NCBI RefSeq assembly: GCF_056746865.1
Contig: NZ_CM163382.1
Direction: 5' to 3' (one strand)
Length of the DNA stretch: 64,000 nucleotides
Below, piece after piece: positions 25,320 to 53,322 of this stretch (position 1 is its first letter; the number at the start of each line of letters is the position of its first letter). The notes beneath the pieces were generated by a model. That model saw nothing but the letters and a program-made list of their open reading frames with translations. It had not been told where the DNA came from and searched no databases. The translations under genes were made by a program, and so were the position numbers.

Positions 25320-25861
25320 TTGATTTTTACTCCAATACCCGAAACCACCAGCCATACTTCATTTGCCGCAGCGGCCAACTGCTGATTTACCCGCCCGGCA
25401 ATATCACGAAAATGTCGTGCCAGACGACTCTCCGGCACAATCCCCATTCCCACTTCGTTAGTCACTAATACAACCTTTGCGGGGCAACGTTGGCAGGCAG
25501 CAATCAACGACTGAATCTCAGCATTAATCGCCTGTTCCATCGCCTGATAATCCCATTCATCAGGGTCTTTATCGCCGCCATAATCAAACAACAGATTAGT
25601 CACCATTGTGGTAACGCATTCCAGCAACACAACCTCATTCGGGTTAATGTCTGCATGAATTAATTCATCAAGATGTTGCCAGCGCTCCACTGTGCGCCAG
25701 TGCTCCGGGCGGCCTTGCCGATGATGTTCTATCCGTGCAGCCATCTCATCATCAAGGATTTGCGAGGTAGCGATATACAGAACCTGTGAAGAGTCCCCAA
25801 TAAGCGCCTCTGCGTGGCGACTCTTCCCGCTCCGTGCGCCCCCCGTCACCAAAATCATCAT
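25316..25861 (-). CDS. cobU: adenosylcobinamide kinase / adenosylcobinamide-phosphate guanylyltransferase
   Basis: 181-aa ORF with P-loop GGARSGKS. Confidence 0.9.
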
Positions 25862-27134
25862 ACCGACTCCTGATTCAAATGTATGATGGTATTCATTGAA
25901 CAGAACAATGGATCCCCCACCGTTGCTGACCGCAAAACATTTACGCGATTAATACTGCGCGTAATATAATTAAAAATCCAGCATTCTCAATCCATTACGA
26001 AATAAGATGGCATTACGGAATAGCCAGACTTTCTCGTGTTAACGTCCGACAAAATGTGTCATTGACAGCGGTTTCTGTGGATTGACACATTTCATTCAGA
26101 TAATGAATTAATGCTACTGCCGGACCAACCAGCAAACGGGCATTGTGTTCTGAAATCCAGGCTATTGATTCAACGTCAGCGACAGTTCTGCGCTGTAAAA
26201 GAACTTGTAAAACAACGCAATAGAATTATCCGGAATGGTGGCGACTATGCACTAGAACACCACAATTTCGCTCTCTCGGTAAGGCACTGTCACAGCATTC
26301 AACAGAATGTGACTTGCCAGATTTATTAGCGCCACCAGATGTTTAACCGGGTAACCACGACCCAGTCGGGGATATATTCCATCTTCTCGCTGACATCATC
26401 AAGAATAAAAAGGTTTATCACACTCAGAGCAACGTTCTTCAGCAGGCGGGATAATTCTTCAACATTTAAAAGATGTGTTATTAAAGGCATACAAACTGGA
26501 CGTATTGTATTTTCTTTTGGTGGTTGACCTAAGGTAGCAGTTTATCCTGATGCGCTGAGATTTCTGTAATATCTACGTCAACATTCTCCTCGAATAGAAA
26601 ATGCAGCCCCGGCAAGTGATTCACATTTTTTAACAAAACGTTGTTAGCGTGCCATTTTCAGAAGCTCTCCAAGAAAGCGAATTCTTTTCTCAAATTCTGC
26701 ATTCTCAGACACAGCTTTCTACTCCATGGCAATGGCCCAAATACGAAGTTGCTCAGGATCATTAGTGGTGCTGAGAAGTTAAATAACCATGCGGAGTACC
26801 ACTCGTCATCACGTATTTATATATCATGAAGCTATTGTTGTGTTTTGTACATCAGTAGATGTATTCTGATATACTCCTTTTGCTAGACATAACCTTTCAC
26901 CTGCTTGCAAAGCTTCTGTGTTCTGACATTGCCAAATTGTTGCAATTCTGTATCCAGCCTTCTTTCAGTCATAGCTTCGGGCCGCGATAAGACTCACTGA
27001 TCTGACCCTGATTCCTCTTGCAGACTTTATAGACCAATTAAAATGCAGTTTCTGCAGGTCAACGTCTGACCATCATTGTCATCACTCTGGCCATTAGAGT
27101 AACCTTCTGCATTCATCCTTTTGTAAAAAGTTTA

Positions 27135-27590
27135 TAGACTGGCCCCCTGAATCTCCAGACAACCAATATCACTTAAATAAGTGATAGTCCTGATACAAGT
27201 TTTTAGAGTAGTCATTAGTGAACAGATAATTGTTAACTTAGAACCAGTAAAATGCAAACGACGCACCACGCTGGGAAAATCGCTGCTATTCAGCAGAGTT
27301 TTGTACCGAGAATTGTGGCCAGCCACTTATTGCTCTCGCGTAAGCAGGTATCCCCATCGTTTACCAGTCCAGCACATCTTGTGGTCAGGCAGAAGAAGAG
27401 CAAACTGTTACTGGACTCACTGCATGCATGGTGGAGAAAAATGCCACGCTATCCAAAAATCCAGACTGGGAGAATGGTTCAGCTGTGTACTGAATCAGTG
27501 GGGCGCACTCTGTTATTACAGTGTTGACGGTCAGGCGGAGGCAGACATAATGCCGCGGAAAAAGCCCTTTGTGCCATCTGTCTCGGAAAT
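27135..27590 (+). mobile_element. IS2-group (IS3 family) left-end remnant
   Basis: first ~55 bp (TAGACTGGCCCCCTGAATCTCCAGACAACCAATATCACTTAAATAAGTGATAGTC) nearly identical to the IS2 end at 12468..12522, then a diverged OrfA-like reading frame. Confidence 0.55.
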
Positions 27591-27805
27591 AAAAACTTTA
27601 TGTTCTTCGGCGGCGAGCGCAGTGCACTGTTGTATGGGCTTATCGGCACTTGCCTTCTGAACGACATTGATCCGGAAGCGTATCTGCGCCATATCCTGAG
27701 CGTACTGCCGGAATAACCTTCCAACCGTATTGATGAACTCCTGCCATGGAACGTAGTTCTCACCAATAAATAAGCATCAATATGATTCTCCATTAACGCT
27801 TACCT
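27590..27805 (+). mobile_element. IS66-family right-end fragment (3' end of tnpC plus terminal repeat)
   Basis: encodes ...LLYGLIGTCLLNDIDPEAYLRHILSVLPE*PSNRIDELLPWNVVLTNK; ends in CGCTTAC (reverse of the GTAAGCG IS66 terminus). Confidence 0.55.
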
Positions 27806-27911
27806 TTTCTCAGGCTATTTTTGCTTTTTTTTGCTTTTCCCCGCCACTTTATGGTGATTATCACATCAATATACATCGATAGATATTAACGTAACTGAAG
27901 TGAGGTGAAGC

Positions 27912-29126
27912 ATGAAATTTGAACGCCATCATGAAATATTGAAACGACTCAGTAAATTCGGTTCTGTAAAAGTATCCGATCTGTCCAATAGCCTCAATGT
28001 AACGAAAGAAACTATTAGTTCAGATCTTAATGAACTTGCCAGGCTTGGCTATCTGACTCGATGTCATGGCGGTGCTTTTATCGTCCTAGACTCGCTTGAT
28101 ACTATTGCGAAAAATGAAATCGCTTATGCGCTTGAAAATTATGATACAGCCCAGGGAATAAAAAAAGGCCACTCAACTATGAAAAGTCAAGTATGCGTTA
28201 TTGGTTCGTTTAATGTTGATATCATCAGTTATTTGCCGAGGCTTCCCACTATCGGAGAATCGCTTCTGGCAAGTAATTTTATATTTTCACCGGGGGGAAA
28301 AGGCTGTAACCAGGCGCTGGCAGCAAGCTTTGCCGATACTGATGTTTATTTCATAACAAAAGTAGGTACAGATCACTTTAGTGATTATGCGATCAACTTT
28401 ATGAATTCGTCTAAGATTTATAAAAGTATAATTTATCAAACGAAAGAAACGCAAACCGGAACTGCCACGATCCTTGTTAATGAAGGTACTGGCGATAATG
28501 TTATTGCGATCTATCCCGGTGCCAACATGACAATGTCGTCCGATGAAATAACTATTCAGAAAGAAGCGATTATTAATTCTGATGTCATACTTCTGCAGCT
28601 CGAAACAAATTATACCGCTCTGCAACAAGCGATCACATTGGCGCAAAAAAACAGTATCCCGGTCATTATTAACCCGGCACCCTATAATGATATCGTCAAC
28701 GAACTTATTCAGGATGTTGATTATATCACCCCCAATGAAACAGAAGCTGGTTTACTGTCCGGCATAGACGTACACGATCTTGAATCAGCTAAACGAGCTG
28801 CAGAAGCTATCCACAATAAAGGGGTAAAAAACACGGTTATCACGCTCGGTAGCAAGGGCTCGCTCGCATTTGATGGCAAAAAATTCATTCATTCGCCAGC
28901 GTTTCCAGCGGTCGTTAAAAATACGGCAGGAGCCGGGGATGCGTTTAACGGCTCTCTGGCATCAGGACTTGCGAAAGGAAAATCACTGGAATCAGCACTG
29001 TGTTATGCCAGCGCCTTTGCATCCCTAGCGGTGGAGACAAGCAATGCTTCCGACATGCCTGAACATGAATCTGTGATACATCGAATTCAGAGTATACATT
29101 ATCAGCAAACTATTTTTACGCATTAA
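27912..29126 (+). CDS. DeoR-type HTH regulator fused to a PfkB-family carbohydrate kinase
   Basis: N-terminus SDLSNSLNVTKETISSDLNELARLGYLTRCHGGA (DeoR HTH); C-terminus with TPNETEAGLL and GAGDAFNG (PfkB signatures). Confidence 0.75.
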   Translation: MKFERHHEILKRLSKFGSVKVSDLSNSLNVTKETISSDLNELARLGYLTRCHGGAFIVLDSLDTIAKNEIAYALENYDTAQGIKKGHSTMKSQVCVIGSFNVDIISYLPRLPTIGESLLASNFIFSPGGKGCNQALAASFADTDVYFITKVGTDHFSDYAINFMNSSKIYKSIIYQTKETQTGTATILVNEGTGDNVIAIYPGANMTMSSDEITIQKEAIINSDVILLQLETNYTALQQAITLAQKNSIPVIINPAPYNDIVNELIQDVDYITPNETEAGLLSGIDVHDLESAKRAAEAIHNKGVKNTVITLGSKGSLAFDGKKFIHSPAFPAVVKNTAGAGDAFNGSLASGLAKGKSLESALCYASAFASLAVETSNASDMPEHESVIHRIQSIHYQQTIFTH

Positions 29127-29139
29127 GAAGGGACAGAGA

Positions 29140-29898
29140 ATGAATAACACCAAAAAATCACTAAAAGTGCTCTTTATTGGGGAATCCTGGCATATTCATA
29201 TGATTCATTCAAAAGGATATGACAGTTTTACCTCAAGTAAATATGAAGAAGGTGCGACCTGGTTACTCCAGTGTCTGAAAAATAGTCAGGTAGATGTCAC
29301 CTATATGCCAGCACATACGGTACAAATTGCCTTCCCTGAAGATGTGGCACAGTTAGAACAATATGATGCCATCGTTATTAGTGATATTGGTAGTAATACT
29401 TTCCTGCTACAAAATGATACTTTTTATCAGCTTCGCATAAAACCAAACGCTCTCGAACTGATTAAAGAATATGTGAATAACGGTGGTGGGTTATTGATGA
29501 TTGGCGGCTATCTCTCATTCATGGGAATTGAAGCAAAAGCCAATTATAAAAATACAGTTCTGGCTGATGTGCTCCCGGTTACGATGTTAGATGGTGACGA
29601 TCGTGTCGAAAAACCAGAGGGTGTTATTGCACAGCCATCACAACCTGAACATCCAGTTATTAAAGGGTTCTCTGAATATCCTTTTTTCCTAGGTTATAAC
29701 CGGGCGATCGCTAAAGAAAATGCTGAGGTGGTATTAACAATAAACAACGCTCCATTACTGGTCTTTGGTAACTATCACAACGGGAAAATAGCCTGCTTTA
29801 TGAGTGACTGTTCACCGCACTGGGGTACACAGCAGTTTATGTCCTGGCCGTTCTATACCGCGTTGTGGGTAAATATACTGACTCATATTGCAAGATAA
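29140..29898 (+). CDS. hypothetical protein, possibly class-I glutamine-amidotransferase-like (ThuA-like) fold
   Basis: 252-aa ORF 14 nt after the kinase stop; fold assignment is tentative, from memory only. Confidence 0.5.
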   Translation: MNNTKKSLKVLFIGESWHIHMIHSKGYDSFTSSKYEEGATWLLQCLKNSQVDVTYMPAHTVQIAFPEDVAQLEQYDAIVISDIGSNTFLLQNDTFYQLRIKPNALELIKEYVNNGGGLLMIGGYLSFMGIEAKANYKNTVLADVLPVTMLDGDDRVEKPEGVIAQPSQPEHPVIKGFSEYPFFLGYNRAIAKENAEVVLTINNAPLLVFGNYHNGKIACFMSDCSPHWGTQQFMSWPFYTALWVNILTHIAR

Positions 29899-29954
29899 TA
29901 ATAATAATGGGGTAACTCCAGTTACTCCATTTACTATAATAGAAGGATTGATGT

Positions 29955-30920
29955 ATGAAAAAGAATAAGTACTCAACTCCCTTATGGATGCTTGCCACGA
30001 TTCTTGCGGGTATGCTCTCCCCTATGCAATCAGCGGTGAATGGTCAATTAGGTCACTGGTTACAGGACGGTAATGCATGCGCAGTTATCTCCTTTGCCAG
30101 TGGTTTAGTCGTGATGTTTTTTATTATTATGGCGCGAAAAGAAACCCGGCAACAATTTGCGGCAATTCCTTCTCTGATTAAAAACCGAAAAGTTCCTCTC
30201 TGGAACTGGTTTGCCGGTCTCTGTGGAGCGATGGTGGTATTTTCTGAAGGCGCATCAGCCAGCGCACTCGGGGTCGCAACGTTTCAGACCGCACTGATCT
30301 CCGCGCTATTGCTGTCTGGTTTACTTTGCGATCGCTTTGGTATCGGTGTCGACGAGAAAAAATACTTTACCCCTTATCGCATCATCGGTGCATTATTTGC
30401 GGTTATTGCTACGATTTTTGTTGTGTCACCGCAGTGGCATTCTACCTCTTTCATTTTACTTGCCATTCTTCCGTTCTTAGCTGGTTTGCTTGCAGGATGG
30501 CAGCCCGCTGGAAATGCAAAAGTAGCTGAAGCTACGGGATCCATGCTGGTTTCAATCACCTGGAATTTCATCGTTGGATTTTGTGTTTTAGGCACAGCGC
30601 TAGCTATTCGTGTCGCATTAGGGCACGTCACTGTTCAATTACCAGATGTCTGGTGGATGTATCTTGGCGGCCCGCTTGGACTAATGTCTATCGGTTTAAT
30701 GGCCATTTTGGTCAGAGGTCTTGGGTTACTGATGCTGGGGGTTGCTTCAACGGCGGGCCAGTTACTGGGATCAGTATTGATTGACGTATTAATTCCATCG
30801 CTGGGCAATACCGTTTATCTGGTCACGATCATCGGAACACTGTTTGCACTGGTCGGTGCAATTGTTACCACTATTCCGGAATACAGAGCCTCGAAAACAA
30901 TGAAGAAAATGGAGGTATAA
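29955..30920 (+). CDS. DMT-superfamily membrane transporter (YdcZ/DUF606-like)
   Basis: 321-aa ORF, about 10 TM helices, internally duplicated halves. Confidence 0.6.
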   Translation: MKKNKYSTPLWMLATILAGMLSPMQSAVNGQLGHWLQDGNACAVISFASGLVVMFFIIMARKETRQQFAAIPSLIKNRKVPLWNWFAGLCGAMVVFSEGASASALGVATFQTALISALLLSGLLCDRFGIGVDEKKYFTPYRIIGALFAVIATIFVVSPQWHSTSFILLAILPFLAGLLAGWQPAGNAKVAEATGSMLVSITWNFIVGFCVLGTALAIRVALGHVTVQLPDVWWMYLGGPLGLMSIGLMAILVRGLGLLMLGVASTAGQLLGSVLIDVLIPSLGNTVYLVTIIGTLFALVGAIVTTIPEYRASKTMKKMEV

Positions 30921-30922
30921 TC

Positions 30923-31957
30923 ATGAAAGATTATCTACAAACTGTGACGGGCCCCGTCGCCCGTGAAGATATGGGGCTAACACTTCCTCATGAACATCTG
31001 TTCAACGATCTTTCCTCTGTTGTGGATGCTCCTTGCTATCCTTTTTCACAACGGCTTGTTGATAAAAAAGTCACGGCAGAAATCCAGTGGGCATTAAAAC
31101 ACGATCCTTATTGCTGCGCTGATAATATGGACCGCAAACCTATTGAAGATGTGATCTTCGAAATTAATAACTTTATCTCGCTCGGTGGTCGCACCATTGT
31201 TGATGCCACAGGGTCTGAGTCTATCGGACGAGATGCGCAGGCATTACGAGAAGTCGCATTAAAAACAGGTCTGAATATTGTTGCTTCCTCCGGTCCCTAC
31301 CTGGAAAAATTTGAAAGCCAGAGAATTCATAAAACGGTTGATGAACTGGCGACAACGATCGATAAAGAATTGAATCAAGGGATTGGCGATACGGATATTC
31401 GTGCCGGAATGATCGGTGAAATAGGTGTCTCACCGACATTTACCGAAGCCGAGCATAACAGCTTGCGGGCTGCCTCGCTGGCACAGATTAACAATCCTCA
31501 TGTGGCGATGAATATTCACATGCCGGGCTGGCTTCGTCGCGGTGATGAAGTACTCGACATTGTGTTAGGTGAAATGGGCGTCTCGCCAAATAAAGTCTCT
31601 CTCGCACACTCGGATCCGTCAGGAAAAGACGTGGCGTATCAGCGGAAAATGCTTGATAAAGGTGTCTGGCTGGAATTCGACATGATTGGCCTAGACATTA
31701 CCTTCCCGAAAGAGGGAATAGCGCCAGGGGTGCAGGAGACTGCCGATGCCGTCGCTCATCTCATTGAGTTGGGATACGCCGATCAGCTTGTTCTCAGCCA
31801 CGATGTCTTCCTTAAACAAATGTGGGCTAAAAATGGCGGTAATGGCTGGGGATTTGTTCCAGATGTTTTTCTGGCCTATCTGGCGGAGCGCGGCGTCGAT
31901 AAAACGATCCTCAAAAAACTCTGTATCGATAATCCCGGACGATTATTGACCGCATAA
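30923..31957 (+). CDS. phosphotriesterase-homology protein (amidohydrolase superfamily, Php-like)
   Basis: 344-aa ORF; metal-binding HEH at the N-terminus (LPHEHLF), later His/Asp ligands; start 3 nt after the transporter stop. Confidence 0.75.
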   Translation: MKDYLQTVTGPVAREDMGLTLPHEHLFNDLSSVVDAPCYPFSQRLVDKKVTAEIQWALKHDPYCCADNMDRKPIEDVIFEINNFISLGGRTIVDATGSESIGRDAQALREVALKTGLNIVASSGPYLEKFESQRIHKTVDELATTIDKELNQGIGDTDIRAGMIGEIGVSPTFTEAEHNSLRAASLAQINNPHVAMNIHMPGWLRRGDEVLDIVLGEMGVSPNKVSLAHSDPSGKDVAYQRKMLDKGVWLEFDMIGLDITFPKEGIAPGVQETADAVAHLIELGYADQLVLSHDVFLKQMWAKNGGNGWGFVPDVFLAYLAERGVDKTILKKLCIDNPGRLLTA

Positions 31958-31996
31958 AACCATTATCCCCCGGCACATTGCGCCGGGGGATGTCAA

Positions 31997-32335
31997 TTAA
32001 TACCCCGCCGTTAAATCATCCACCAAGCGCGAGTCGGATGCGCCGTACAACTCACCATCCGACCCAACCATAATGCTTTGCGTGCTGCCCATCGCCTCAT
32101 TCAGCGCCACTTTCTGACCTTTTGCTTCCAGCAGCTTGAGCGTATCCGGACTAAACCCTTTTCAACACGCAGCTCGTCCGGCAACCACTGATGGTGGAAA
32201 CGAGGCGCATTGGTCGCTTCGGCAACATTCATTCCACAATTGATGCTGTTCACCACCATTTGCGGCACGGTAGTGATGATCCAGCTACCGGTAACAAAGT
32301 GAGTACATAAAGGCCATACTGTCACGAACAGTGCA
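31997..32335 (-). pseudogene. ggt: gamma-glutamyltranspeptidase 3' fragment
   Basis: minus strand encodes ...TTVPQMVVNSINCGMNVAEATNAPRFHHQWLPDELRVEKG, then after a frameshift ...DSRLVDDLTAGY*. Confidence 0.7.
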
Positions 32336-32608
32336 AAAGTGGCTCTTCCTCAACCTAGGTGAAGATTTTCATGCCAGTGGACTCATTACCCTCCGCCTAA
32401 GTAGTTCAAGTCCGGCTCGACCATACATCTGGCGTATCAGCACCTTCAGGCGATTTACATGACCTTCGACAACACCAGTACTCCAGCGACTGCTGATTGC
32501 CTCACATATAGCCGCAGCATCAGCTTCCATCCCCGCAGCTACGCACCGAAGTTCTGCTGAGCCGCTTTCGTGGACCCGAGTGAACCAGCTGCTTAGCTGT
32601 GATTTATT

Positions 32609-33988
32609 TTAGGTTTTCAGAATACGGTAGAACTCGAGTACCAGTTGCTGCGCTATTTTCAACTCCGGTTCTTTTTCACACATCAGACTAATAAATCGGA
32701 AAGCATAATTTTCTTCACCCCTGATTATTCTCCAGGGCATCAACCAGCGGCTTACCCGTGACACTGAAGGAAGTCTTGCGGCAGTAGTAACCGGTGGGAT
32801 CCAGCCTTTATGCCATTTGGCAACAGCATCCCTGACGATGGTTTCACTGCCTGTAACCCCCCTGGCCACCATTTCCCGCCATATCCGGCCGGAGTTATAA
32901 TTACCACATTCTCGTTGCTCTTTTAACCACTCCCTCCATGGGTCCAGAAGCCCTCGCTTTGGAGGCCTGGTTGACATTTCAGGGAATGTTCCTGAACCCA
33001 CCCAGCGACTGACTGTCACTCGCGACAGGCCTGTAATACGGGATATTTCCCTGAAACTACATCCCTTGTTATGCAGGGCCATAACCTCTGTCCAACGCTG
33101 ATGCCGTTTTTTGCGGATGTGCTGTTTAAGGCGTTCCAGACGACGGAGCGATGCTACAGGCACAGATATTTCTGGCTCAGGTGATTTCTTCAGTGATAAC
33201 TCTCTGACAACAAGACGTATCAGAGGCATATGTCTGTACATCATTCGTTCAGGCTCATCACCAATATTTTTTAGCAGGTGCCATCGATCGGCCACCTGTC
33301 TGGCCTGAGGTGCACCTTCACGTGCTGCTGTCGCATAGACTCCACTGCGATCACGCGAGACAACCTGTATTTCCGGATATTTTCTGAACCAGGTCGCCAG
33401 CGTACGCTGATCACGGCCGGGAAGCAGGACGAGGGGACGGTGAGTATCAGGATTGACTATTAACATACCGCAGCAGTGGCCCCGATGCCACGCCCACTCA
33501 TCAATACCGACATGAGGCGCGCCTGACTGTTTCGTCTCCGGGGTATTGATAAGCCTGCGAAGAAGAGTATCAGCACTGCAACGGAGACCCACTGCCGTTG
33601 CAGCCCGTTTTCCAGCCTCACCTCCAGCTATTAATCCCAGTTGACGTTGTTAATTTTGTAACGCCTGTGAAGACTGCTGGTGTGAACTGGCGAAGGGAGC
33701 AAGCGACTCGGCAAAAATTTTACGTGAACAAGCCGGGTTACGGCAGTACCAGTGGCGGACGGAAAATACAAGCCATAGCGTCTGCCCTGAGCAGGGTAGA
33801 TGCTGTATCCGGCGCCGACGACAACTATGAACAGAGTCGCTACGCTTAAAGCATTCAGGACATTGTGCTGTTTTGCGTTTTCCGTGGAGATGGAGGGTTA
33901 TACCGTCAGAGCTAATAATTTGTCGACTGCATCGCCATCCGCAAGGTAACTGTAGAAGTGTCTTAAGAGAGTGCATTGCGTTGCCCAT
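32609..33988 (-). pseudogene. ISL3-family transposase, split by a frameshift
   Basis: ORF 33650..33988 has the zinc-ribbon N-terminus (LHLHGKRKTAQCPEC...HLPCSG...WYCRNPACSRKIFAE); ORF 32609..33592 has the DDE core (GIDEWAWHRGH...DRWHLLKN). Confidence 0.6.
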
Positions 33989-34271
33989 AACTTAAAACAG
34001 CTTAGATCCTTGTTCGCCAGAAAGTTTCATCCATTTTCTTCCACCCAGGTTGCGGAAGAACCACTTTTCATCCGTCGTTGACAGATGTGAAGTATGCGGG
34101 AGAAAAAGTGAATATCTAACTGTAATAACTCAGACCGGTACGAGTACTCGGGACGTCTACAATCATTCAGGGCAAAGTGCTAAAATTTCTCTATCCCGGG
34201 ATGCCCCTACCAACGCAGCACTCCCGGAGATATCATTACAGCTCTGCAACTGATTTCCGCGACTGAACCGC

Positions 34272-34679
34272 TCAGTTCCTATCCTTCCAGTTGCCCTCCT
34301 GCCCCCCCTCCCTGCTGTATACCCCGGTACCACAACTCGGGCAGCACTTTTCCCCCTCATAATTTTCGTCACACATCACACAAAACCACTTTCTCACCTT
34401 CACCGTATAATCCGGAACCGTCATACCCTGCAGATGCAAACGACGGGCCTCTTTCTCTGCCGGGTCAAGCCAGGTGCATCGCAGCAGGATTTTCTCAGCG
34501 ACAGTCATCTGGTCATGTTCAAACCACGGTGGTTGTCCGTCATTGCCCCGCTGAAGTGTTAACGGGCATCCACAGGACACACAGCACAAAACGTCCTGGC
34601 GGTTGTGCTTCGCTGCTTCTTTCGCCGTAACAAAATGGCCTTTGCTGTCATTCGCCATATAACAGTTCAGAATTCGCAT
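34272..34679 (-). CDS. Cys-rich hypothetical protein (paralog B of a tandem pair)
   Basis: 135 aa from ATG 34679 with AGGAGG RBS; same CxxC...PWFEH...CxxC layout; overlaps paralog A stop by 13 nt. Confidence 0.45.
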   Translation of the reverse strand: MRILNCYMANDSKGHFVTAKEAAKHNRQDVLCCVSCGCPLTLQRGNDGQPPWFEHDQMTVAEKILLRCTWLDPAEKEARRLHLQGMTVPDYTVKVRKWFCVMCDENYEGEKCCPSCGTGVYSREGGQEGNWKDRN

Positions 34680-35074
34680 ATTTCCTCCTGAGTTGTCCGG
34701 GGAATACTGAATCCTCCGGTCTGGCAGTGTGTGCAGTACCGCTCCCCATAATAATCGTGGTGACATTGTCTGCAGTGCCAGCTGGCTTTACGCACCACGG
34801 GTAAGGCATCCGGTACGAATTGCTGCAGACGTTTAATCAACTGTATTTCTCTGCGCTCCGGCCTGACATAAGGGCACTGTTGACCGTGCTCTGTCAGCCT
34901 GTCGTCAGTGTGTTCAAACCAGGGAAGTTCAGTGTCGTATTGCGGATGGTATCTGAGTGCACTGCCACACAAGTGGCAGGTGTAGTTAGCATAAGGTGCG
35001 GCCTGTGCAGTACGGGCGCCCGTCAGACGTCCGTTGCCATCAAGAGCGATAAAGGATTTTGCGTACATAGTCAT
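34667..35074 (-). CDS. Cys-rich hypothetical protein (paralog A of a tandem pair)
   Basis: 135 aa; CxxC...PWFEH...CxxC pattern; GAGGA RBS. Confidence 0.45.
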   Translation of the reverse strand: MTMYAKSFIALDGNGRLTGARTAQAAPYANYTCHLCGSALRYHPQYDTELPWFEHTDDRLTEHGQQCPYVRPERREIQLIKRLQQFVPDALPVVRKASWHCRQCHHDYYGERYCTHCQTGGFSIPRTTQEEICEF

Positions 35075-35327
35075 ATTCCTCAGCCGCCAGACGACACGCA
35101 GGCAACAGCCGTCCCGGTACGGGCAGCGTGGTCAGGGTGTGAATGGCGGTTCAGTTAAAATCTGGACTGGAGTTTGGGTAAAGCAGGCTGGTTGCTGTTA
35201 CAGCACTGTGGTTGTCACACAATGGAACACTGACGTAAAAAACAGTCAGTGGGCGAGTGGATACATCGTTGCCGCCAGACAACAACCCATACTTTTGGTT
35301 TGCCGGGTATTGGCGCGCCAGTCGTGC

Positions 35328-35897
35328 TCAACTCCGGCTACAGCCAAAATTGCGCTCACCGGTGCAGTGAGCTTTGGTATGTTCCTTCGCCAGATAGTCA
35401 GCACGTTCCAGCACCTGCTGAAAGCCAGTGTCATCATCGCGTTCCAGCCACACCGCCGGCCAGGCCGGGAAATGCACCAGCGTGGCATGGCACCCGACAT
35501 CCACTCCCAGGGCACTGCACCACGCCTGTTTAATCATCCCGGCCAGTGATCCCGGAGCACGGTAATCACCGGCACGACACCAGGTATCCCGGTTAACCAG
35601 CAGCATCAGGTGATAGTGTTTTTTACCTTTGCACTCCCCAAACTCCCGGGCCCAGACGTAATGCAGGGTTGTGGGATGCACGCGTTTACCTTCCCGATGC
35701 TTACGTTTCTGGTAAGCGTCGATTCGGGCTTTCAGGGCATTGATGAAGCGGGATATCACAGCTGCGTCCGTTGCTGCCGGTACATCCGGGAAACGCAGGT
35801 CAACCCGCAATGCCGTCAGGCGGGGATGAACATTCAGTGCGTGCCGCACCGTCTCACGAATACGTTGCTGCCAGAAGGGGTTGTATTTGTAGGTCAT
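35328..35897 (-). CDS. YagK/YfjJ-family (inovirus Gp2-like) protein
   Basis: ORF 35328..35933; likely start ATG 35897 (MTYKYNPFWQQRIRE) with GGAG RBS; family call from memory. Confidence 0.5.
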   Translation of the reverse strand: MTYKYNPFWQQRIRETVRHALNVHPRLTALRVDLRFPDVPAATDAAVISRFINALKARIDAYQKRKHREGKRVHPTTLHYVWAREFGECKGKKHYHLMLLVNRDTWCRAGDYRAPGSLAGMIKQAWCSALGVDVGCHATLVHFPAWPAVWLERDDDTGFQQVLERADYLAKEHTKAHCTGERNFGCSRS

Positions 35898-36093
35898 GGT
35901 TAAATCTCCGTATGGTTCATACGGAATAGCCACGTCGTAAAAAATGCGCAGAGTCCCTGAAGTGACCTCCGGCAGGACACTGTCTCAGGCACTCTGTGAT
36001 AACCCGAACGGTCGTCTCCGGACTGACGGTTGAATTTTCAGCGTTGTTTTTTTAATGTAAAAAACCGGTTACGGGTAAGGCTGTGAGGAGGGA

Positions 36094-44318: not shown

Positions 44319-44839
44319 TTTCAGACAGATATTATTTCCGTGAATCCCCCGCCACCTTTCCGGTGCGCGGGGTTTTGTCTTTTTTCACCGGGAATACATG
44401 TATGAATCCGTCTGATGCCATTGAGGCAATTGAAAAACCGCTCTCCTCCCTGCCTTACTCACTTTCCCGTCACATCCTGGAACATCTGCGCAAACTCACC
44501 AGTCACGAACCCGTGCCTGGCATTATGGGTAAAAGCGGGGCCGGTAAATCCTCACTCTGTAATGCGCTGTTTCAGGGGGAGGTCACCCCGGTCAGTGATG
44601 TTCACGCCGGCCCCCGGGAAGTGCAGCGCTTCCGTCTTGCAAAATGGCATCTGAATCGATCGCAGTTTGGCATTCGAATCGATCATGATTTGGCATCCAT
44701 CTCCGATCACAGTTTGGCATCACAATCGATCACGATTTGGCATGCTTCCGATCATTGATTGGCATCCTGCCAGTCACTCCGGGAATTAACTCTTTTCACC
44801 ACAGTCTCCATTGCCGTGTTTAAACCAGTGGAGACGTCA

Positions 44840-46405
44840 ATGTCCAGAAAGAGAAAATCCAGGAGCACTATGGAAACCTGTTTTAAGATTCTTCAGCTCA
44901 AGTTCGACAAGAAGCTGACTAACCGTTGTATCGGACTGACGTTACACATCAGCGCCTCAACCGTTTTTGAGGTTCTTGCCCGCTTCAAAGCCTCTTCTCT
45001 GTCATGGCCATTACCTGCTGATATATCCCATGACACGCTGGAGAAACTCATTTTTCCGCCCAAAGACACCTTTGCATCAGAGCTTGTAATGCCTGACATG
45101 TTGTACCTCGATACGGAAATGAGAAAACCAGGTGTGACGCGGCAACTGTTGTGGATGGAATACAAGGCACAGGCGGGTAACAAAGCGATGGGATACTCGC
45201 ACTTCTGCCGTTGCTACCGGGAGTGGAAAAAAACGCGACGTCTCTCCATGCGCCAGGAGCATCGTGCCGGCGAAAAGCTTTTTATCGACTTCTGTGGTCC
45301 TACGGTTCCTGTTATTAATCCGGACACCGGTGAGATACGCCGCGTGGCAATCTTCGTGGCCGTAATGGGGGCGTCCAACTATACCTACGTTGAAGCGTGC
45401 GAAGGTCAGGACATGATGTCATGGTTAAATGCCCACAGCCGTTGCCTGACCTTCCTGGGCGGCGTACCGAAGCTGCTCATCCCCGATAACCTCAGAAGCG
45501 CAGTGAAAAAGGCCGATCGATATGAGCCTGTCATCAACGACAGTTATCAGGCACTGGCTGAGCACTATGGCACGGTTATCATCCCGGCCCGACCACGCAA
45601 ACCTAAAGATAAACCAAAAGCAGAAAACGGCGTCCTCATCGTCGAACGATGGCTTCTTGCCCGCATCCGTAATGAAACCTTCCACACGCTCAGGGCGCTG
45701 AATGCGCGCCTTAGGGAGTTACTGACAGACATGAATAACCGGCCAATGAAGGGGTACGGCAATCAAACCCGTGCAGAACGCTTCCGCATACTGGATGCGC
45801 CAGCACTCTCTCCGCTGCCTCTGGCACCTTATGAATACACGGAATACAAAGCTGTGAAGGTTGGCCCTGACTACCACGTTGAATATGCCCGTCACTGGTA
45901 CTCCGTTCCACACGAACTGGTCGGTCAGCGTCTGTCACTGAAGGCGGGGCAGTCGGTGGTACAGCTCTGGCACAAGGGGCAGTGTGTGGCGCAACATCCG
46001 CGCAGCACACATGAATATAAACACACAACCAATCCGCTTCACATGCCAGAGCGCCACCGGCAGCACGGGACATGGACACCGGAACGCCTGATCGAGCAGG
46101 GAAAACGTACGGGCCCGTCCACAGGCCGGGTGGTTGAATCCATGCTGAAGGCAAAACCCCATCCGGAACTGGCTTATCGTGCAGTTCTGGGGCTGCTGGC
46201 ACTTCAGAAAAAATACGGCCCGGAACGGCTGGAAAAGGCCTGTTACGTTGCCCTGCACTATAACGCCCCTGACAGACGCTTTATCGACAATCTGCTGCGT
46301 CACCATCGGGAGAACCTGGAGCTTCCATTATCCCGCCAGGGCGAACAACATCCGGCATATGCTTCAGAGCATGAAAACCTGCGTGGTCCGGGCTACTACC
46401 ACTGA
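44840..46405 (+). CDS. istA: IS21-family transposase IstA
   Basis: ORF 44759..46405; start placed at MSRKRKS (44840), uncertain. Confidence 0.8.
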   Translation: MSRKRKSRSTMETCFKILQLKFDKKLTNRCIGLTLHISASTVFEVLARFKASSLSWPLPADISHDTLEKLIFPPKDTFASELVMPDMLYLDTEMRKPGVTRQLLWMEYKAQAGNKAMGYSHFCRCYREWKKTRRLSMRQEHRAGEKLFIDFCGPTVPVINPDTGEIRRVAIFVAVMGASNYTYVEACEGQDMMSWLNAHSRCLTFLGGVPKLLIPDNLRSAVKKADRYEPVINDSYQALAEHYGTVIIPARPRKPKDKPKAENGVLIVERWLLARIRNETFHTLRALNARLRELLTDMNNRPMKGYGNQTRAERFRILDAPALSPLPLAPYEYTEYKAVKVGPDYHVEYARHWYSVPHELVGQRLSLKAGQSVVQLWHKGQCVAQHPRSTHEYKHTTNPLHMPERHRQHGTWTPERLIEQGKRTGPSTGRVVESMLKAKPHPELAYRAVLGLLALQKKYGPERLEKACYVALHYNAPDRRFIDNLLRHHRENLELPLSRQGEQHPAYASEHENLRGPGYYH

Positions 46406-46421
46406 CAGAAGGAACAACAGT

Positions 46422-47177
46422 ATGAGTGATAACCTGTTAAACAAACTGACCCAACTGAAACTCCCGGCGATGGCCGGGAGCCTGATACGGCAGCGGGAAA
46501 CGCCTCAGACCTACGACGAACTGTCGTTCGAGGAAAGGCTGACGCTGCTGGTTGATGACGAGCTTCTGAGCAGGGAAAACAGCCGTGTGGCACGGTTGAG
46601 AAAAAATGCCGGCCTGAAATACCAGGCAACACCGGAAGGGCTGCGCTATCCGGCCTCAAGAGGTCTGCGGGCTGAACAGATGAGAGAACTGCTGAACGGC
46701 CACTACATAACCCACAGGAAAAACCTGCTGATAACCGGTCCGACAGGATGTGGCAAGAGCTGGATAGCCAATGCGCTGGGCGAACAGGCATGTCGACAGA
46801 AACACAGCGTCCGGTACTGTAGAACCGGGCGATTACTGGAACAACTGGCTCAGGGACGTGTTGATGGCAGCTGGCTGAAATATCTGAAACAGTTGCAAAA
46901 AATACAGGTTCTAATCCTGGACGATCTGGGGCTGGAACAGTTAAGTAACGCCCAGTGTAATGACCTTCTGGAGCTCATAGAGGATCGTTACGGACAAAGC
47001 AGCACGATAGTGGTAAGCCAGTTCCCGGTAGATAAATGGCATGGTCTGATGGAGAACCCAACAACAGCAGATGCCATCCTGGACAGACTGGTACATAACT
47101 CACACCGGGTGGTCCTTCAGGGAGAGTCACTGAGGAAAAATCCCCCGGTAGTGGAAAGCAGCGAAAAAACGCGTTAA
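46422..47177 (+). CDS. istB: IS21-family ATP-binding helper IstB
   Basis: start ATG 46422 (MSDNLLNKL); Walker A GPTGCGKS; DExx-like LILDDLG. Confidence 0.85.
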   Translation: MSDNLLNKLTQLKLPAMAGSLIRQRETPQTYDELSFEERLTLLVDDELLSRENSRVARLRKNAGLKYQATPEGLRYPASRGLRAEQMRELLNGHYITHRKNLLITGPTGCGKSWIANALGEQACRQKHSVRYCRTGRLLEQLAQGRVDGSWLKYLKQLQKIQVLILDDLGLEQLSNAQCNDLLELIEDRYGQSSTIVVSQFPVDKWHGLMENPTTADAILDRLVHNSHRVVLQGESLRKNPPVVESSEKTR

Positions 47178-48137: not shown

Positions 48138-50534
48138 ATGCACGAAAAGAACATCGCCCTGCTTTGTGATGAAGCCGACCGACTTTTGCAACTGAACATT
48201 AATCTGCTCCGGCAAATGGTTGAGGAGCCAGATGTGTTATCTGACAGTAAGAACGAAAACAGACTGCTTTTTGATAAACAGAAAGCACTGAAAAGAATTG
48301 AGGAGCTGGAGGGCGAACAAATCAAAACCGCCCGCAGGGAGATGGTGCTGGCTGTTGTCGGCACGATGAAAGCAGGCAAATCAACCACCATCAACGCCAT
48401 TGTGGGGCAGGAAATTCTGCCTAACCGTAACCGCCCCATGACCTCTGTACCGACGCTCATCCGCCACGTTCCCGGAAAAACTGAGCCGGTTCTCCATCTG
48501 GAACATATTCAGCCTGTCCGCAATTTATTAATCACACTGCAGGAAAAACTCGCCACCCCGGCAGGACAGCAGGTCGCACAGACCCTGCAGCAAACCGGGG
48601 ATACCCGCGAACTGCTGGATATTCTGACGGATGATGGCTGGCTCAAAAATGAATACCACGGGGAGGAGGAAATCTTTACCGGACTGGCATCGTTAAACGA
48701 TCTGGTTCGTCTTGCTGCGGCAATGGGGACTGAATTTCCTTTTGATGAATACGCAGAAGTGCAGAAACTGCCGGTGATCGACGTGGAATTCAGCCATCTG
48801 GTGGGGATGGATGCATGCCAGGGAACACTCACACTGCTGGATACCCCCGGCCCTAATGAGGCCGGACAACCGCAGATGGAAGTGATGATGCGGGATCAAC
48901 TGCAGAAAGCCTCTGCGGTTCTGGCTGTGATGGATTACACCCAGATGAACTCAAAAGCGGATGAAGACGTCCGTAAAGAGCTTAATGCCATTGCTGACGT
49001 ATCAGCCGGCCGCCTGTTTGTACTGGTCAATAAATTTGATGAGAAAGACCGCAATGGCGATGGGGCAGATGCCGTACGCCAGAAAGTTCCGGCAATGCTG
49101 AACAGCGATGTGCTGCCCGCCTCCCGCGTTTATCCCGGATCCTCACGCCAGGCATACCTGGCTAACCGTGCGCTTCATGAGTTACGGAAAAACGGAACCC
49201 TTCCTGTTGATGAAGCCTGGGTCGATGATTTTATCAGAGGTGCCTTCGGTTGCATGAAAAAAGAATACGTCTGTAAAGACAGTGAACTGGCAACTGAAGG
49301 GGCGACAGACCTGTGGGAAGGCTCACTTATCGATCAACTGATAACGGAAGTCATACAGAGCTCACATTCCAGAGCTGCGGCACTGGCGGTTGACTCTGCC
49401 GCCGCAAAACTGATGCAGAATGCAGAAAATATCAGTGAATACCTGTTGTTACGCCATCAGGGGCTACAGCAAAGCATTCAGTCACTGCAGTCGCATATCA
49501 CCAGCCTGCTTGCGGATATCCGGGAAATCGCGGACTGTCAGGAGCAGATGACCACTGATGTCAGAATGGCCATGGAGGAGATCGATACTAAAACCCGGGA
49601 ATTACTGACGGGGGTCTGCACCTCACTGGAAGAGGAGCTGAATGACTATTTCAGAAGCGGTAAACGCAAAGAACAGCAAATGCTGGAGGAAGAAGACGCA
49701 GAACAACGAAGGTCTCAGTCCGGATTATGGGGGAAAATTTCTCAATGGTCCGGTATCAACAACCAGGGCCGGGAGGATTACAGGAAACGAGATTTTGCCC
49801 CGGACAGCCCCGAAATAAAATTCAGTGATCGCAGGGAAGCCCTTGAACTGATGACGCAAATCGAATCGACCGTGACCAGCCTGCACCGTGAGGCTGAAGC
49901 ACAGTTCCGGCCTGAGCTGGAGAAAATCGTCAGCGGGATTGAAACAGGTTTTCGTGGCACGGCCCTGTACGCCACAGAAAACATTGCCGGTCGCATCAAT
50001 GCCCGCCTGGAGGATGAGGGCTTTACCGTAAAAATCAGTTTTCCGGCAGTCAGCCAGTTACAGACCCGGCTCGCGGTAAAAATAAATCTGAGTGCGCTTA
50101 TGGAGGAAAGAACGGAGACCGTCACCCGTCGCCGTCGGCAGAGTGGCGTATGGGGAACCGTTTGTCGATGGTTTGGCACCAGTGACCTGGGCTGGGAAAA
50201 CTATGACGAGGATGTGAGTCGCAGCGTGATCAATATCAACAAGGTCAGAGAGGAAGTTATGTCACTGACCCGGGCATATTTCGGGGAGCTGCAGGCATCC
50301 ATTGAGCAGGATATTAACCAGCCCGTCCGCCAGGAAATCGATGCCTTTTTCTGCGCATTCAGGGAGAAAGTTGAACAACTGCGTAACACGCTGATTCAGA
50401 GCTCTGAAGATCATAAACGCGATCAGCAGGCGCAGGAACGGCTTACCGGGCGACTTCAGGCATTAAATGAAAGGGTTCCTGAGCTCATTACTGACAGTAA
50501 GGCGCTGAGGGAAGAGCTGGAGACAATGCTGTGA
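48138..50534 (+). CDS. dynamin-like GTPase (bacterial dynamin-like protein)
   Basis: 798 aa; G1 GTMKAGKSTTINAIVG, G3 LLDTPGPNE, G4 VLVNKFD; long helical C-terminal half. Confidence 0.85.
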   Translation: MHEKNIALLCDEADRLLQLNINLLRQMVEEPDVLSDSKNENRLLFDKQKALKRIEELEGEQIKTARREMVLAVVGTMKAGKSTTINAIVGQEILPNRNRPMTSVPTLIRHVPGKTEPVLHLEHIQPVRNLLITLQEKLATPAGQQVAQTLQQTGDTRELLDILTDDGWLKNEYHGEEEIFTGLASLNDLVRLAAAMGTEFPFDEYAEVQKLPVIDVEFSHLVGMDACQGTLTLLDTPGPNEAGQPQMEVMMRDQLQKASAVLAVMDYTQMNSKADEDVRKELNAIADVSAGRLFVLVNKFDEKDRNGDGADAVRQKVPAMLNSDVLPASRVYPGSSRQAYLANRALHELRKNGTLPVDEAWVDDFIRGAFGCMKKEYVCKDSELATEGATDLWEGSLIDQLITEVIQSSHSRAAALAVDSAAAKLMQNAENISEYLLLRHQGLQQSIQSLQSHITSLLADIREIADCQEQMTTDVRMAMEEIDTKTRELLTGVCTSLEEELNDYFRSGKRKEQQMLEEEDAEQRRSQSGLWGKISQWSGINNQGREDYRKRDFAPDSPEIKFSDRREALELMTQIESTVTSLHREAEAQFRPELEKIVSGIETGFRGTALYATENIAGRINARLEDEGFTVKISFPAVSQLQTRLAVKINLSALMEERTETVTRRRRQSGVWGTVCRWFGTSDLGWENYDEDVSRSVININKVREEVMSLTRAYFGELQASIEQDINQPVRQEIDAFFCAFREKVEQLRNTLIQSSEDHKRDQQAQERLTGRLQALNERVPELITDSKALREELETML

Positions 50535-51436
50535 CTTCACCATTTATTCAACAAATTGCTGATAACCGGGTATGTCAGGTACTCACCTGTCTTCCTGAAA
50601 AATTTGTGGTTGATTTCGCAAACGGAATCGATGTTGCACAGGAGCATATCCGCACGGCCGGAGAGCGCACGTTCTTCCGGCGTTTAAAAGAGGGGCTGAC
50701 CGGCGAAGGCGCTGCACGGCAGAATGCCATCAATGCGTCGCTTGCACAGGGCGTTGAGGCGTCCCTGCGCTGGCTGACGGAGATGACAACGTCACTTGCC
50801 ACCACAAACTACGCGATTACCCGGGTAAACGACAGGGTCAGTTCACTGGTCAGTGATACAGCCAGGCTGGCGCATTATTCCGCAGATACGCGGGAGCAGT
50901 TACTCACCCTGGCCGATCAGGTTCACCATAAACTGAATCATCTTGAAGAAAAACTCCACCGTGTTGACCAGGTTCAGCGGGCGCAGTTACATCTTGAGCA
51001 GATATTCTCATGGTGGAGCGCCGGGCGATATGCGTCATTTTCCCCTGCCGGACGTTGTTATGTGGCACTTGAAGAGCTTCGCTGGGGCGCGTTTGGTGAT
51101 GTGATACGTCAGAGCGAAACAGGCCAGGTTAACCAGCTACTGGATATTCTCAGACATAAAGCATTAACGCAGATGGCACAGGAGAGTGGCGGTAGTGCAA
51201 CCGTGCGTCTGAACACTCTGGACTGGCTTGGTGGTCAGGGCCGGGAGCAGGCAGATAACGAGTGGCATGACGCGATTAACTGGCTGGGAGACTGGTGCAG
51301 TGAAGAGCAGCATCCGGTGATCTGGTCAACCACGCAGGCTGCAGAACACTTACCGGTTCGCATGCCTCGCCTCTGCTCTGCAGAACGCCTCTCTGAAAGT
51401 ATGGTCGATGAAATATTTCAGAAGGGGGCTGCATGA
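50531..51436 (+). CDS. hypothetical helical protein translationally coupled to the dynamin-like GTPase
   Basis: 301 aa; GTG start overlaps upstream TGA (GTGA at 50531..50534); no recognised motif. Confidence 0.65.
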   Translation: MTSPFIQQIADNRVCQVLTCLPEKFVVDFANGIDVAQEHIRTAGERTFFRRLKEGLTGEGAARQNAINASLAQGVEASLRWLTEMTTSLATTNYAITRVNDRVSSLVSDTARLAHYSADTREQLLTLADQVHHKLNHLEEKLHRVDQVQRAQLHLEQIFSWWSAGRYASFSPAGRCYVALEELRWGAFGDVIRQSETGQVNQLLDILRHKALTQMAQESGGSATVRLNTLDWLGGQGREQADNEWHDAINWLGDWCSEEQHPVIWSTTQAAEHLPVRMPRLCSAERLSESMVDEIFQKGAA

Positions 51437-52503
51437 GTACAGAAATGAAAACGGGGCTGGTGCTGTCCGGTGGCGGGGCGGTGGGCGCTTATCAGGCGGG
51501 AGTGGTTAAGGCACTGGCAGAGTGTGGTACACAGATCAGCATGGTTTCAGGGGCCAGCATTGGCGCATTCAATGGTGCCATTATCGCGGCCTCTCCCGAT
51601 CTGTCAGAAGCTGCCGTACGCCTGGAGGCGCTCTGGGATCATCTGGGGAATAATCAGGTGCTGTCGGTAAACAGATTGGTTTACTTTTCATTGCTGAAAA
51701 AATTGTTCCAGGCAATGAACCTCTGCCAGATCCCCGGACGTGCAGGAGCACTGCTTACGACGCTTCTTCGCCATATATCGACAATCAACGGGTTTGACAA
51801 TCTGATGGCTCAGCCGTTGTTGTCAGATGAGCCCCTGACAGCGCTGATGGATCATTATCTTGATACTGATGCTCTGGCAGACGGGCTACCGCTGTATGTG
51901 TCGCTGTACCCCACAGAAGGGGGCATGCAGGATATTATTGACTGCATTCGTGCTGAACTGGGTGTCGGAACCACGAAAAACGCCGTTTTTCAGCATATCC
52001 AGAGCCTGCCCCGCGGACAGCAGAAAGAGGCTCTGCTTGCGTCAGCCGCGCTGCCCCTGCTGTTCCGTCCCCGTGAGGTTCAGGGGACAATGTTCGGTGA
52101 TGGTGGTATGGGAGGATGGCGAAATATGCAGGGAAATACCCCTGTGACGCCTCTGGTCGATGCCGGATGCAATATGGTGATTGTGACGCATCTGAGTGAG
52201 GGTTCTTTATGGGATCGCCAGGCTTTTCCGGACACCACAATCCTTGAGATCCGTCCCCGGAAAAGGCTGAAATATGCAGGTGATGGTGGCAACAGCGGCG
52301 GTCTGCTCAGTTTTACATCGGCACATACCGACGCCTGGCGTCAGCAGGGCTATGAAGACACGATGCTGGCGATGGAGCATATCCGGAAACCGCTGGCAGC
52401 ACGTCAGGCACTGACCCGGTCAGAGGCGGTATTGCAGAAAAGCCTGGATATAACGGAAGAGGCAGATTTGGCACTGAGAAACGCGATGGCCCGGATTAAA
52501 TAA
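51433..52503 (+). CDS. patatin-like phospholipase
   Basis: 356 aa; GGGAVGAYQAG oxyanion motif, GASIGA (GxSxG) nucleophile, DGG catalytic Asp; ATGA overlap with the upstream gene. Confidence 0.85.
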   Translation: MSTEMKTGLVLSGGGAVGAYQAGVVKALAECGTQISMVSGASIGAFNGAIIAASPDLSEAAVRLEALWDHLGNNQVLSVNRLVYFSLLKKLFQAMNLCQIPGRAGALLTTLLRHISTINGFDNLMAQPLLSDEPLTALMDHYLDTDALADGLPLYVSLYPTEGGMQDIIDCIRAELGVGTTKNAVFQHIQSLPRGQQKEALLASAALPLLFRPREVQGTMFGDGGMGGWRNMQGNTPVTPLVDAGCNMVIVTHLSEGSLWDRQAFPDTTILEIRPRKRLKYAGDGGNSGGLLSFTSAHTDAWRQQGYEDTMLAMEHIRKPLAARQALTRSEAVLQKSLDITEEADLALRNAMARIK

Positions 52504-52833
52504 AGACGCCCCAAAGAAACGCCACCGCCTGTGGTGGTGTTTTTCCTGTCTGGTGTTATTGAAAATATTTTCATATATATATTACCTGAGAGAAAGTTTT
52601 ACCCCTCACCTGTCAATTCACTCACTGGAAATTTAATTATGAAATTACCTGTAAAGTTATTAATGAGCCTTATATCTCTGGTCAGCGTTATTGCACGTGC
52701 CGGGGAATATAAAAATTACAGCCGGGATGAAATAAAATACTGGCGATATACATCATACAAGGGGGGGAAACTTCCGGAAGGTTTCACTGATGAGAAATTT
52801 TCCAGCGCCATTTACAACGGAAGAATATTTACA

Positions 52834-53322
52834 ATGAAACGTTTACATACCCTTATGTTATTTCTGGCGGTTCTGTTCACGGGCTTTAACTTTAACGCAG
52901 AAGCGGCTACCGTAAAACAAGCTCTTAGTTGTAACCCGGAAGCCTGGGCTGAACAACCTGGAGCGTGTCCATCAACGTACGAGTTGTACGAAGGTGACGC
53001 TACCTACAAAGCCGCTATCGACAAAGCATTAAAACCGGTCGGACTGAGCGGCATGTTCGGTAAAGGCGGCTATATGGATGGCCCTGGTGGAGGTATCACG
53101 CCAGTAAACATTAACGGTACAGTCTGGTTCCAGGGCGACGGTTGCAAAGCCAATACCTGCGGCTGGGACTTTATCGTAACACTCTATAACCCAAAAACCC
53201 ATGAAGTTGTTGGCTACCGTTACTTTGGTTTAGATGACCCGGCCTACCTGGTTTGGTTCGGTGAAATTGGCGTGCATGAATTCGCGTATCTGGTGAAAAA
53301 CTACGTAGCTGCGGTTAACTAA
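52834..53322 (+). CDS. periplasmic protein, possibly Ivy-like (lysozyme-inhibitor family)
   Basis: signal peptide MKRLHTLMLFLAVLFTGFNFNAEA; GCKANTCGWDF resembles the Ivy CKPHDCG loop; same frame stays open upstream to 52531. Confidence 0.45.
   Translation: MKRLHTLMLFLAVLFTGFNFNAEAATVKQALSCNPEAWAEQPGACPSTYELYEGDATYKAAIDKALKPVGLSGMFGKGGYMDGPGGGITPVNINGTVWFQGDGCKANTCGWDFIVTLYNPKTHEVVGYRYFGLDDPAYLVWFGEIGVHEFAYLVKNYVAAVN

Follow-up and report, generated by a model that had tools for sequence, protein, structure and literature searches.

The closest described counterpart of the locus studied here is the Salmonella cluster STM3547-STM3550, which is conserved in some Enterobacterales and in which STM3547 is the ribose kinase RikA; the 2026 paper reporting this (PMC13432705) makes no mention of ggt or of a ggt fragment. 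A literature search on the genomic island and the ggt fragment together found no paper. In the Citrobacter and S. enterica subsp. diarizonae loci, a full-length, convergent ggt lies about 50 bp past the last of the four genes, the phosphotriesterase-related (PTE) gene, and the gene order, yhhX-ryhB-yhhY followed by the four genes and by ggt-yhhA-ugpQ-ugpC, is that of the native ggt locus; K-12 carries yhhZ-yrhA-yrhB at the site of the four-gene cluster. A second point of reference is ggt of E. coli K-12 itself (b3447; glutathione hydrolase proenzyme, structures 2dbu and 2e0w), and a third is the general class of gene remnants that IS elements have truncated at the margins of genomic-island cargo.

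The stretch of 64,000 nucleotides that we analysed (the window) is E. coli chromosome, running through four tRNA-Asn genes (asnV among them), cbl-nac, ldtA and cobT-cobS-cobU into a CP4-44-type island. Its four-gene cluster has the same genes in the same order as the Salmonella and Citrobacter locus, likewise with a convergent ggt and an intergenic hairpin, but where that locus has an intact ggt and a yhhY flank, the window has a ggt cut at about codon 478, IS remnants and a CP4-44-type island beside cobU. We consider it very probable that the truncated gene, hereafter ggt', is a nonfunctional, hitch-hiked remnant of the cluster's original chromosomal neighbour ggt, moved along with the cluster by insertion sequences. 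The features bearing on this are, in window coordinates:

27374-27803, plus strand: 3' fragment of an IS66-family transposase gene with the element end, forming the left bound (the PGAP pseudogene at 7379-7721 of the related locus L002 corresponds to window 27374-27716).
27912-31957, plus strand: the rikA cluster, equivalent to STM3547-STM3550 and called the 'cassette' in the first-pass annotation, identified from ORFs, annotation and Pfam labels.
31965-31991, no strand assigned: G+C-rich hairpin; the spacer that holds it, 39 nt long, separates the convergent stops of the PTE gene and ggt'.
31997-32295, minus strand: ggt' pseudogene, the 3' end of the gamma-glutamyltranspeptidase gene, corresponding to K-12 residues ~478-580, with the stop codon at 31997-31999.
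32159-32162, minus strand: frameshift site, a run of four A where intact ggt has five in the alignment.
32283-32290, minus strand: single copy of CGGTAGCT, where K-12 has CGGTAGCC-CAGG-CGGTAGCC.
32296-32318, minus strand: 23 nt belonging neither to ggt nor to ISEc38 and matching nt ~4-25 of the ISEc45 left end at 20 of 22 positions (L083:2651-2673).
32319-34084, minus strand: ISEc38-like IS (ISL3 family) with a pseudogenised transposase and 43-nt imperfect inverted repeats; copies occur on plasmids.

The identity of ggt' is secure. The minus strand of 31997-32295 holds the last ~100 codons of ggt: in blastn, 31997-32290 matched the 3'-terminal 295 nt of K-12 ggt with 92.5% identity (E~1e-121), the homology ending exactly at the stop codon; in phmmer, the minus-strand ORF at 32101-32325 matched residues 88-139 of the E. 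coli GGT small chain (2dbu_B, E=2.3e-21); and the frameshift-corrected 100-aa translation matched Pfam PF01019 (E=1e-20, 74.5 bits against a cutoff of 27). With E-values of 1e-121 for nucleotides, 2e-21 for PDB and 1e-20 for Pfam, and with the independent PGAP call 'gamma-glutamyltransferase, frameshifted, incomplete, missing N-terminus', a spurious similarity to ggt is ruled out. By homology, the fragment belongs to the gamma-glutamyltranspeptidase family (PF01019, an Ntn-hydrolase proenzyme), its translation covering only model positions 420-509 of 512. It is not the full-length proenzyme of ~580 aa with a signal peptide and large and small subunits, and it begins ~87 residues past position 391; Thr391 (E. 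coli numbering) is the autoprocessing and catalytic nucleophile of GGT. Compared with the K-12 gene, ggt' shares the homologous last ~100 codons, the stop position and the C-terminal DDLTAGY, but it is frameshifted and lacks the first ~477 codons, with the signal peptide, the large subunit and the Thr391 nucleophile; its downstream flank is the PTE gene, whereas that of K-12 ggt is yrhB, and it lies ~1.5 Mb away from the resident ggt. We thus have an ordinary, dead pseudogene of about 300 bases, and one that RefSeq/PGAP already annotates in thousands of E. coli genomes. Like other IS-truncated remnants at cargo edges, it is a partial chromosomal gene abutting IS ends and annotated as a pseudogene, and it differs from that class only in revealing the original locus of the cargo.

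Much of what the first-pass annotation had read from the letters alone is borne out by the alignments. The conserved GGT C-terminus is indeed on the minus strand, with ATNAPRFHHQWLPDELRVEKG in the ORF at 32101-32325 and the final DDLTAGY and stop in the ORF at 31997-32110; the internal frameshift exists and consists of one missing A; and the absence of an upstream part holds, as the alignments found no ggt sequence upstream of ggt' and the DNA there is IS sequence. The alignment to full-length ggt that it had proposed gave the 92.5% identity over 295 nt, and the intact copy that it had suggested looking for elsewhere is matched in 5423 of 5426 complete E. coli genomes. Its span of 31997-32335 was right at the start but too long at the end, the ggt homology reaching 32290 or 32295 and 32319-32335 being part of the terminal inverted repeat of the ISEc38-like element.

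Two lesions mark the fragment. The frameshift, a change from GAAAAAGGG to GAAAAGGG seen on the plus strand as the T-run at 32159-32162, is a 1-nt deletion that divides ggt' into two ORFs. From direct inspection of the alignment, we infer that a 12-nt in-frame deletion, removing the residues PGGS, probably took place by slippage between the CGGTAGCC direct repeats; the ggt homology would then end at 32295 rather than 32290, and the 5 nt directly upstream, GTTAC, match K-12 only under this model. In the 294 aligned sites, ggt' and K-12 ggt are separated by 21 substitutions, and ggt' carries nine amino-acid changes.

The neighbours of ggt' bear on its origin. The cluster consists, in order, of rikA (a DeoR-PfkB kinase), a GATase1-like amidotransferase gene, a DMT/YdcZ transporter gene and the PTE gene (php-like). 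With one genome per species (GTDB), the nearest relatives of the PTE protein outside E. coli are in Citrobacter spp. (87-88% aa identity) and S. enterica subsp. diarizonae (85%), and no match was found among the GTDB Escherichia species representatives. At the nucleotide level, window 27817-32290 aligns in one colinear piece of ~4.47 kb, ~76% identical, to the loci of S. enterica subsp. diarizonae (L005) and Citrobacter (L004, L006 and L007), and the block spans the four genes and the spacer and continues into ggt. The window block thus retains the inner organisation of the ancestral locus, with the four genes in order, the convergent ggt and the intergenic hairpin. The ancestral flanks, yhhY/ryhB/yhhX on one side and yhhA-ugpQ beyond ggt on the other, are not there: tblastn found no remnant of yhhY left of the cluster in 25801-28000. 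With the yhhY flank missing and the IS66 fragment and cobU in its place, the block has been relocated.

The same conclusion does not extend to the junction between the PTE gene and ggt'. The hairpin in the spacer has a 12-bp stem and a terminator-like match on the minus strand, folds at -26.9 kcal/mol (z -3.9) on the minus and -22.4 kcal/mol (z -3.6) on the plus strand, and the position of its CCCGG...CCGGG stem is kept in all four outgroup loci of Salmonella and Citrobacter. It is plausibly a relic of the ggt terminator, possibly a bidirectional one. Since both the stop-to-stop spacer and the hairpin are positionally conserved, the PTE/ggt junction is no scar of a rearrangement but ancestral. 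The first-pass annotation was correct that the fragment lies directly after the cassette; the two were not brought together by a rearrangement, however, as Citrobacter and S. enterica subsp. diarizonae have the same PTE/ggt order. Its broader suggestion, that the fragment is left from a rearrangement by which foreign or relocated DNA came to this place, is supported by the colinearity with the Citrobacter and Salmonella ggt locus and by the outer edges bracketed by IS elements.

The rearrangement junctions are these outer edges: the IS66 remnant on the left (~27803), and the IS110-like scrap and ISEc38 on the right (32296-34084). On the left, the IS66-family terminal sequence ...CGCTTAC ends at ~27803 and the homology to Salmonella begins at 27817/27818. 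On the right, the 43-nt imperfect terminal inverted repeats of the ISEc38-like element pair 32319-32361 with 34042-34084, and E. coli plasmid copies annotated as 'ISL3-like element ISEc38', ~95% identical, end at the same positions. PGAP reports an internal stop in the transposase, and PF01610/PF14690 (DDE_Tnp_ISL3) were matched by its product in sister loci; the element thus has both the repeats and the transposase of the ISL3 family. A simple insertion of an ISL3-family element is expected to leave an 8-bp target-site duplication. None is present here: the flanks of the ISEc38-like element, AGGCCATA and ATGTGAAG, differ, and therefore the element did not arrive by a simple insertion and its flanks were formerly not contiguous. 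The 23 nt between ggt' and ISEc38 (32296-32318) had no ggt homology in comparisons with K-12, Citrobacter and Salmonella; they probably derive from the left end of an ISEc45-like element (IS110 family) and were left behind by an earlier IS event, an assignment that is tentative given the short match. ISEc45 copies elsewhere, which we compared for refining the IS110-like end, all lie in IS66-family targets, and their flanks align as well. Genome-wide, ISEc45 copies appear to be located in the 3' ends of IS66-family transposase genes, and in sister strains a full ISEc45 (L083:1240-2677) lies inside the IS66 fragment left of rikA, at window ~27596-27602.

The rikA-ggt' module is common in E. coli and nearly uniform. 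The stretch from the PTE gene to ggt' is found with at least 99% identity in 2529 of 5426 complete E. coli genomes, K-12 not being among the carriers, and nearly all carriers (2526/2529) have the same ISEc38 junction; among loci with an identical PTE protein, the ggt' homology breaks off at one and the same base in all ten distinct contexts. Because one junction prevails in nearly all carriers and the end base is the same, we conclude that the truncation was a single event that preceded the spread of the module; by the same junction count, the lift of the block appears to have happened once. The first-pass annotation had proposed the fragment as a marker of the island's history, and in this role it performs well. 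A separate resident ggt is near-universal in E. coli and is annotated in module carriers too, for example in strains W2-5 and 165. Queried with a chimera of K-12 ggt upstream sequence, ggt' and the PTE 3' end, none of the 5426 genomes showed the cluster contiguous with an intact ggt.

The sequence of ggt' carries information on its source. Over the 295-nt region, it differs from K-12 ggt at 21 sites (13 at third codon positions), from Citrobacter and Salmonella ggt at 52-57 sites (39-41) and from the ggt of divergent Escherichia known from metagenome contigs at 21 sites (14); K-12 and the divergent Escherichia differ from each other at 11 sites (10). The resident E. coli ggt alleles sampled are each 91.2-92.9% identical to ggt', and at 5 of the 21 differing sites ggt' retains the outgroup state. 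The third-position distances, over these 295 nt, place the source allele within Escherichia but outside the modern E. coli ggt diversity. Of the changes assignable to the ggt' branch (11 in total), seven are nonsynonymous and four synonymous, the former all affecting positions at which the outgroups do not vary (R>W, L>P, D>N, K>N, P>S, P>S and S>L), and the K-12 branch has one nonsynonymous and four synonymous changes; judged from these substitutions, the pattern is that of a gene piece drifting without selection. Metagenome contigs were also searched for a donor, that is, for an intact ggt with the ancestral-state sites of ggt'. Three matches were obtained, all with a K-12-type locus and 21 differences, and thus no closer. 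These contigs (OHII01000594.1, SKDY01002691.1 and QZMC01000002.1; L094-L096) represent divergent Escherichia with a ggt ~95% identical to that of K-12 and the yhhZ...ggt arrangement.

Several histories could in principle lead to such a fragment. As ggt' is far closer to the ggt of E. coli than to those of other genera and abuts IS elements, one could see in it a recent, IS-mediated partial duplication of the 3' end of the strain's own resident ggt, placed beside the cassette by chance. We find this very unlikely, and indeed largely refuted: the identity to every sampled resident allele is far from that of a recent copy, the outgroup states at five sites are left over, and the flank consists of the PTE gene and a hairpin of the Salmonella/Citrobacter type instead of the ggt-yrhB arrangement of E. 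coli. In the history that we favour, the cluster would have stood between yhhY and a convergent ggt in a genome of the Escherichia lineage, the position it has to this day in Citrobacter and Salmonella; with an IS66-family element on one side and an IS110-like element and then ISEc38 on the other, a ~4.5-kb block, starting ~95 bp ahead of rikA and ending near codon 478 of ggt, would have been cut out or captured and become fixed in the CP4-44-type island that adjoins cobU. Devoid of a promoter, the large subunit and Thr391, the remaining piece of ggt would then have drifted, accumulating the 1-nt and the 12-nt deletions and the seven lineage-specific replacements at conserved residues. Counting against this history are the missing target-site duplication of ISEc38 and its distance of 23 nt from ggt', and the donor arrangement, the cluster with an intact ggt at an identity of at least 95% to the module, was found in no Escherichia searched. 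We have shown that ggt' is homologous to ggt and the block colinear with the Salmonella and Citrobacter loci, where its IS boundaries lie, how frequent it is in the population and which pattern its substitutions follow; the order of the IS events and the choice between a foreign Escherichia relative and an E. coli ancestor as the source are what we infer.

The choice of source defines a sub-case of the IS-capture history that differs from it in no other respect. An ancestor of E. coli may itself have had the yhhY-rikA cluster-ggt arrangement, from which the block was copied to the cobU island before yhhZ-yrhA-yrhB replaced the native cluster. Such an ancient relocation within the genome agrees with the symmetry of the polarised synonymous changes, four on each branch, with a module diversity among strains (99.1-100% identity) of the order seen in the core genome, and with the fact that 47% of genomes have the module, for the most part at a single locus. 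But the native locus of K-12 retains no trace of the cluster, nor was one seen beside an intact ggt in the 5426 genomes, and the third-position distance to K-12 is somewhat larger for ggt' (13) than for the divergent Escherichia lineage (10); overall, we regard the internal source as possible, if somewhat doubtful. On its own, ggt' is of little importance; its value is that of a provenance tag, telling that E. coli carries the recently named rikA cluster away from the ancestral locus, as a block taken out of the yhhY-ggt interval of a chromosome of the Escherichia lineage and set down in the CP4-44-type island on the cobU side. The ggt'/ISEc38 pair can serve as a presence/absence and junction marker for typing the cobU-side island and for tracing the function and spread of the cluster.

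A rather different question is whether ggt' has been kept for a function, either as a terminator or 3' stabiliser of the PTE gene or, through read-through, as the source of a trans-acting antisense RNA against the resident ggt mRNA. The hairpin is stable on both strands and on the plus strand has no U-tract, and therefore read-through from the PTE gene into the antisense of ggt' is conceivable; moreover, perfect-match stretches of up to ~50 nt remain between ggt' and the resident ggt. Against this stand the neutral-looking substitutions, with seven nonsynonymous changes to four synonymous on the ggt' branch, and the result of an Rfam scan of 26000-36000, which gave no match at E≤1; linkage to the cluster, furthermore, explains the retention of the fragment simply. 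A scan of 31800-32500 found no sigma-70-like promoter. We consider retention for function extremely unlikely, and speculation it would equally be, with hardly any probability attached, that the rikA operon is read through across the weak plus-strand hairpin and gives an RNA antisense to the 3' end of ggt. If this were true, the antisense RNA could couple the expression of the cluster to a down-regulation of the resident GGT in the module carriers, roughly half of E. coli strains.

Some further observations concern the variation of the module and its surroundings. Several strains (L002 9960-10925; L084 and L091 5033-5998) have a DMT transporter gene that is split or carries an internal stop, whereas the window copy at 29955-30920 is intact; a part of the population carries a decaying rikA cluster. 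In strain FDAARGOS_497 (NZ_CP033850.1; L001), IS2 interrupts the amidotransferase gene, and the neighbour of the module is not cobU but a region of aspartate ammonia-lyase, C4-dicarboxylate transporter and hypT; given this different setting, the module or the island has moved or recombined in that strain. The record NZ_CP079635.1, a 1.04-Mb plasmid labelled Klebsiella pneumoniae, contains the E. coli ggt'-ISEc38 stretch with 99.8% identity over 2 kb, and is probably a misassigned or chimeric record and not a real plasmid-borne copy. Within the island of the window, four co-directional ORFs at 48138-53322 (plus strand) occupy the position where CP4-44 of K-12 has flu, their products being a dynamin-like GTPase of 798 aa (PF00350), a YjcZ-like protein of 301 aa (PF13990), a patatin-like phospholipase of 356 aa (PF01734) and a 263-aa protein without a Pfam match; they may form a defence or effector cluster. 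Finally, an IS21-type element at 44759-47174 (plus strand), with istA (rve and Mu-transposase C-terminal domains) and istB and named ISEc12 in a related annotation, lies within the island's YfjP/YeeP-type GTPase region and disrupts it.
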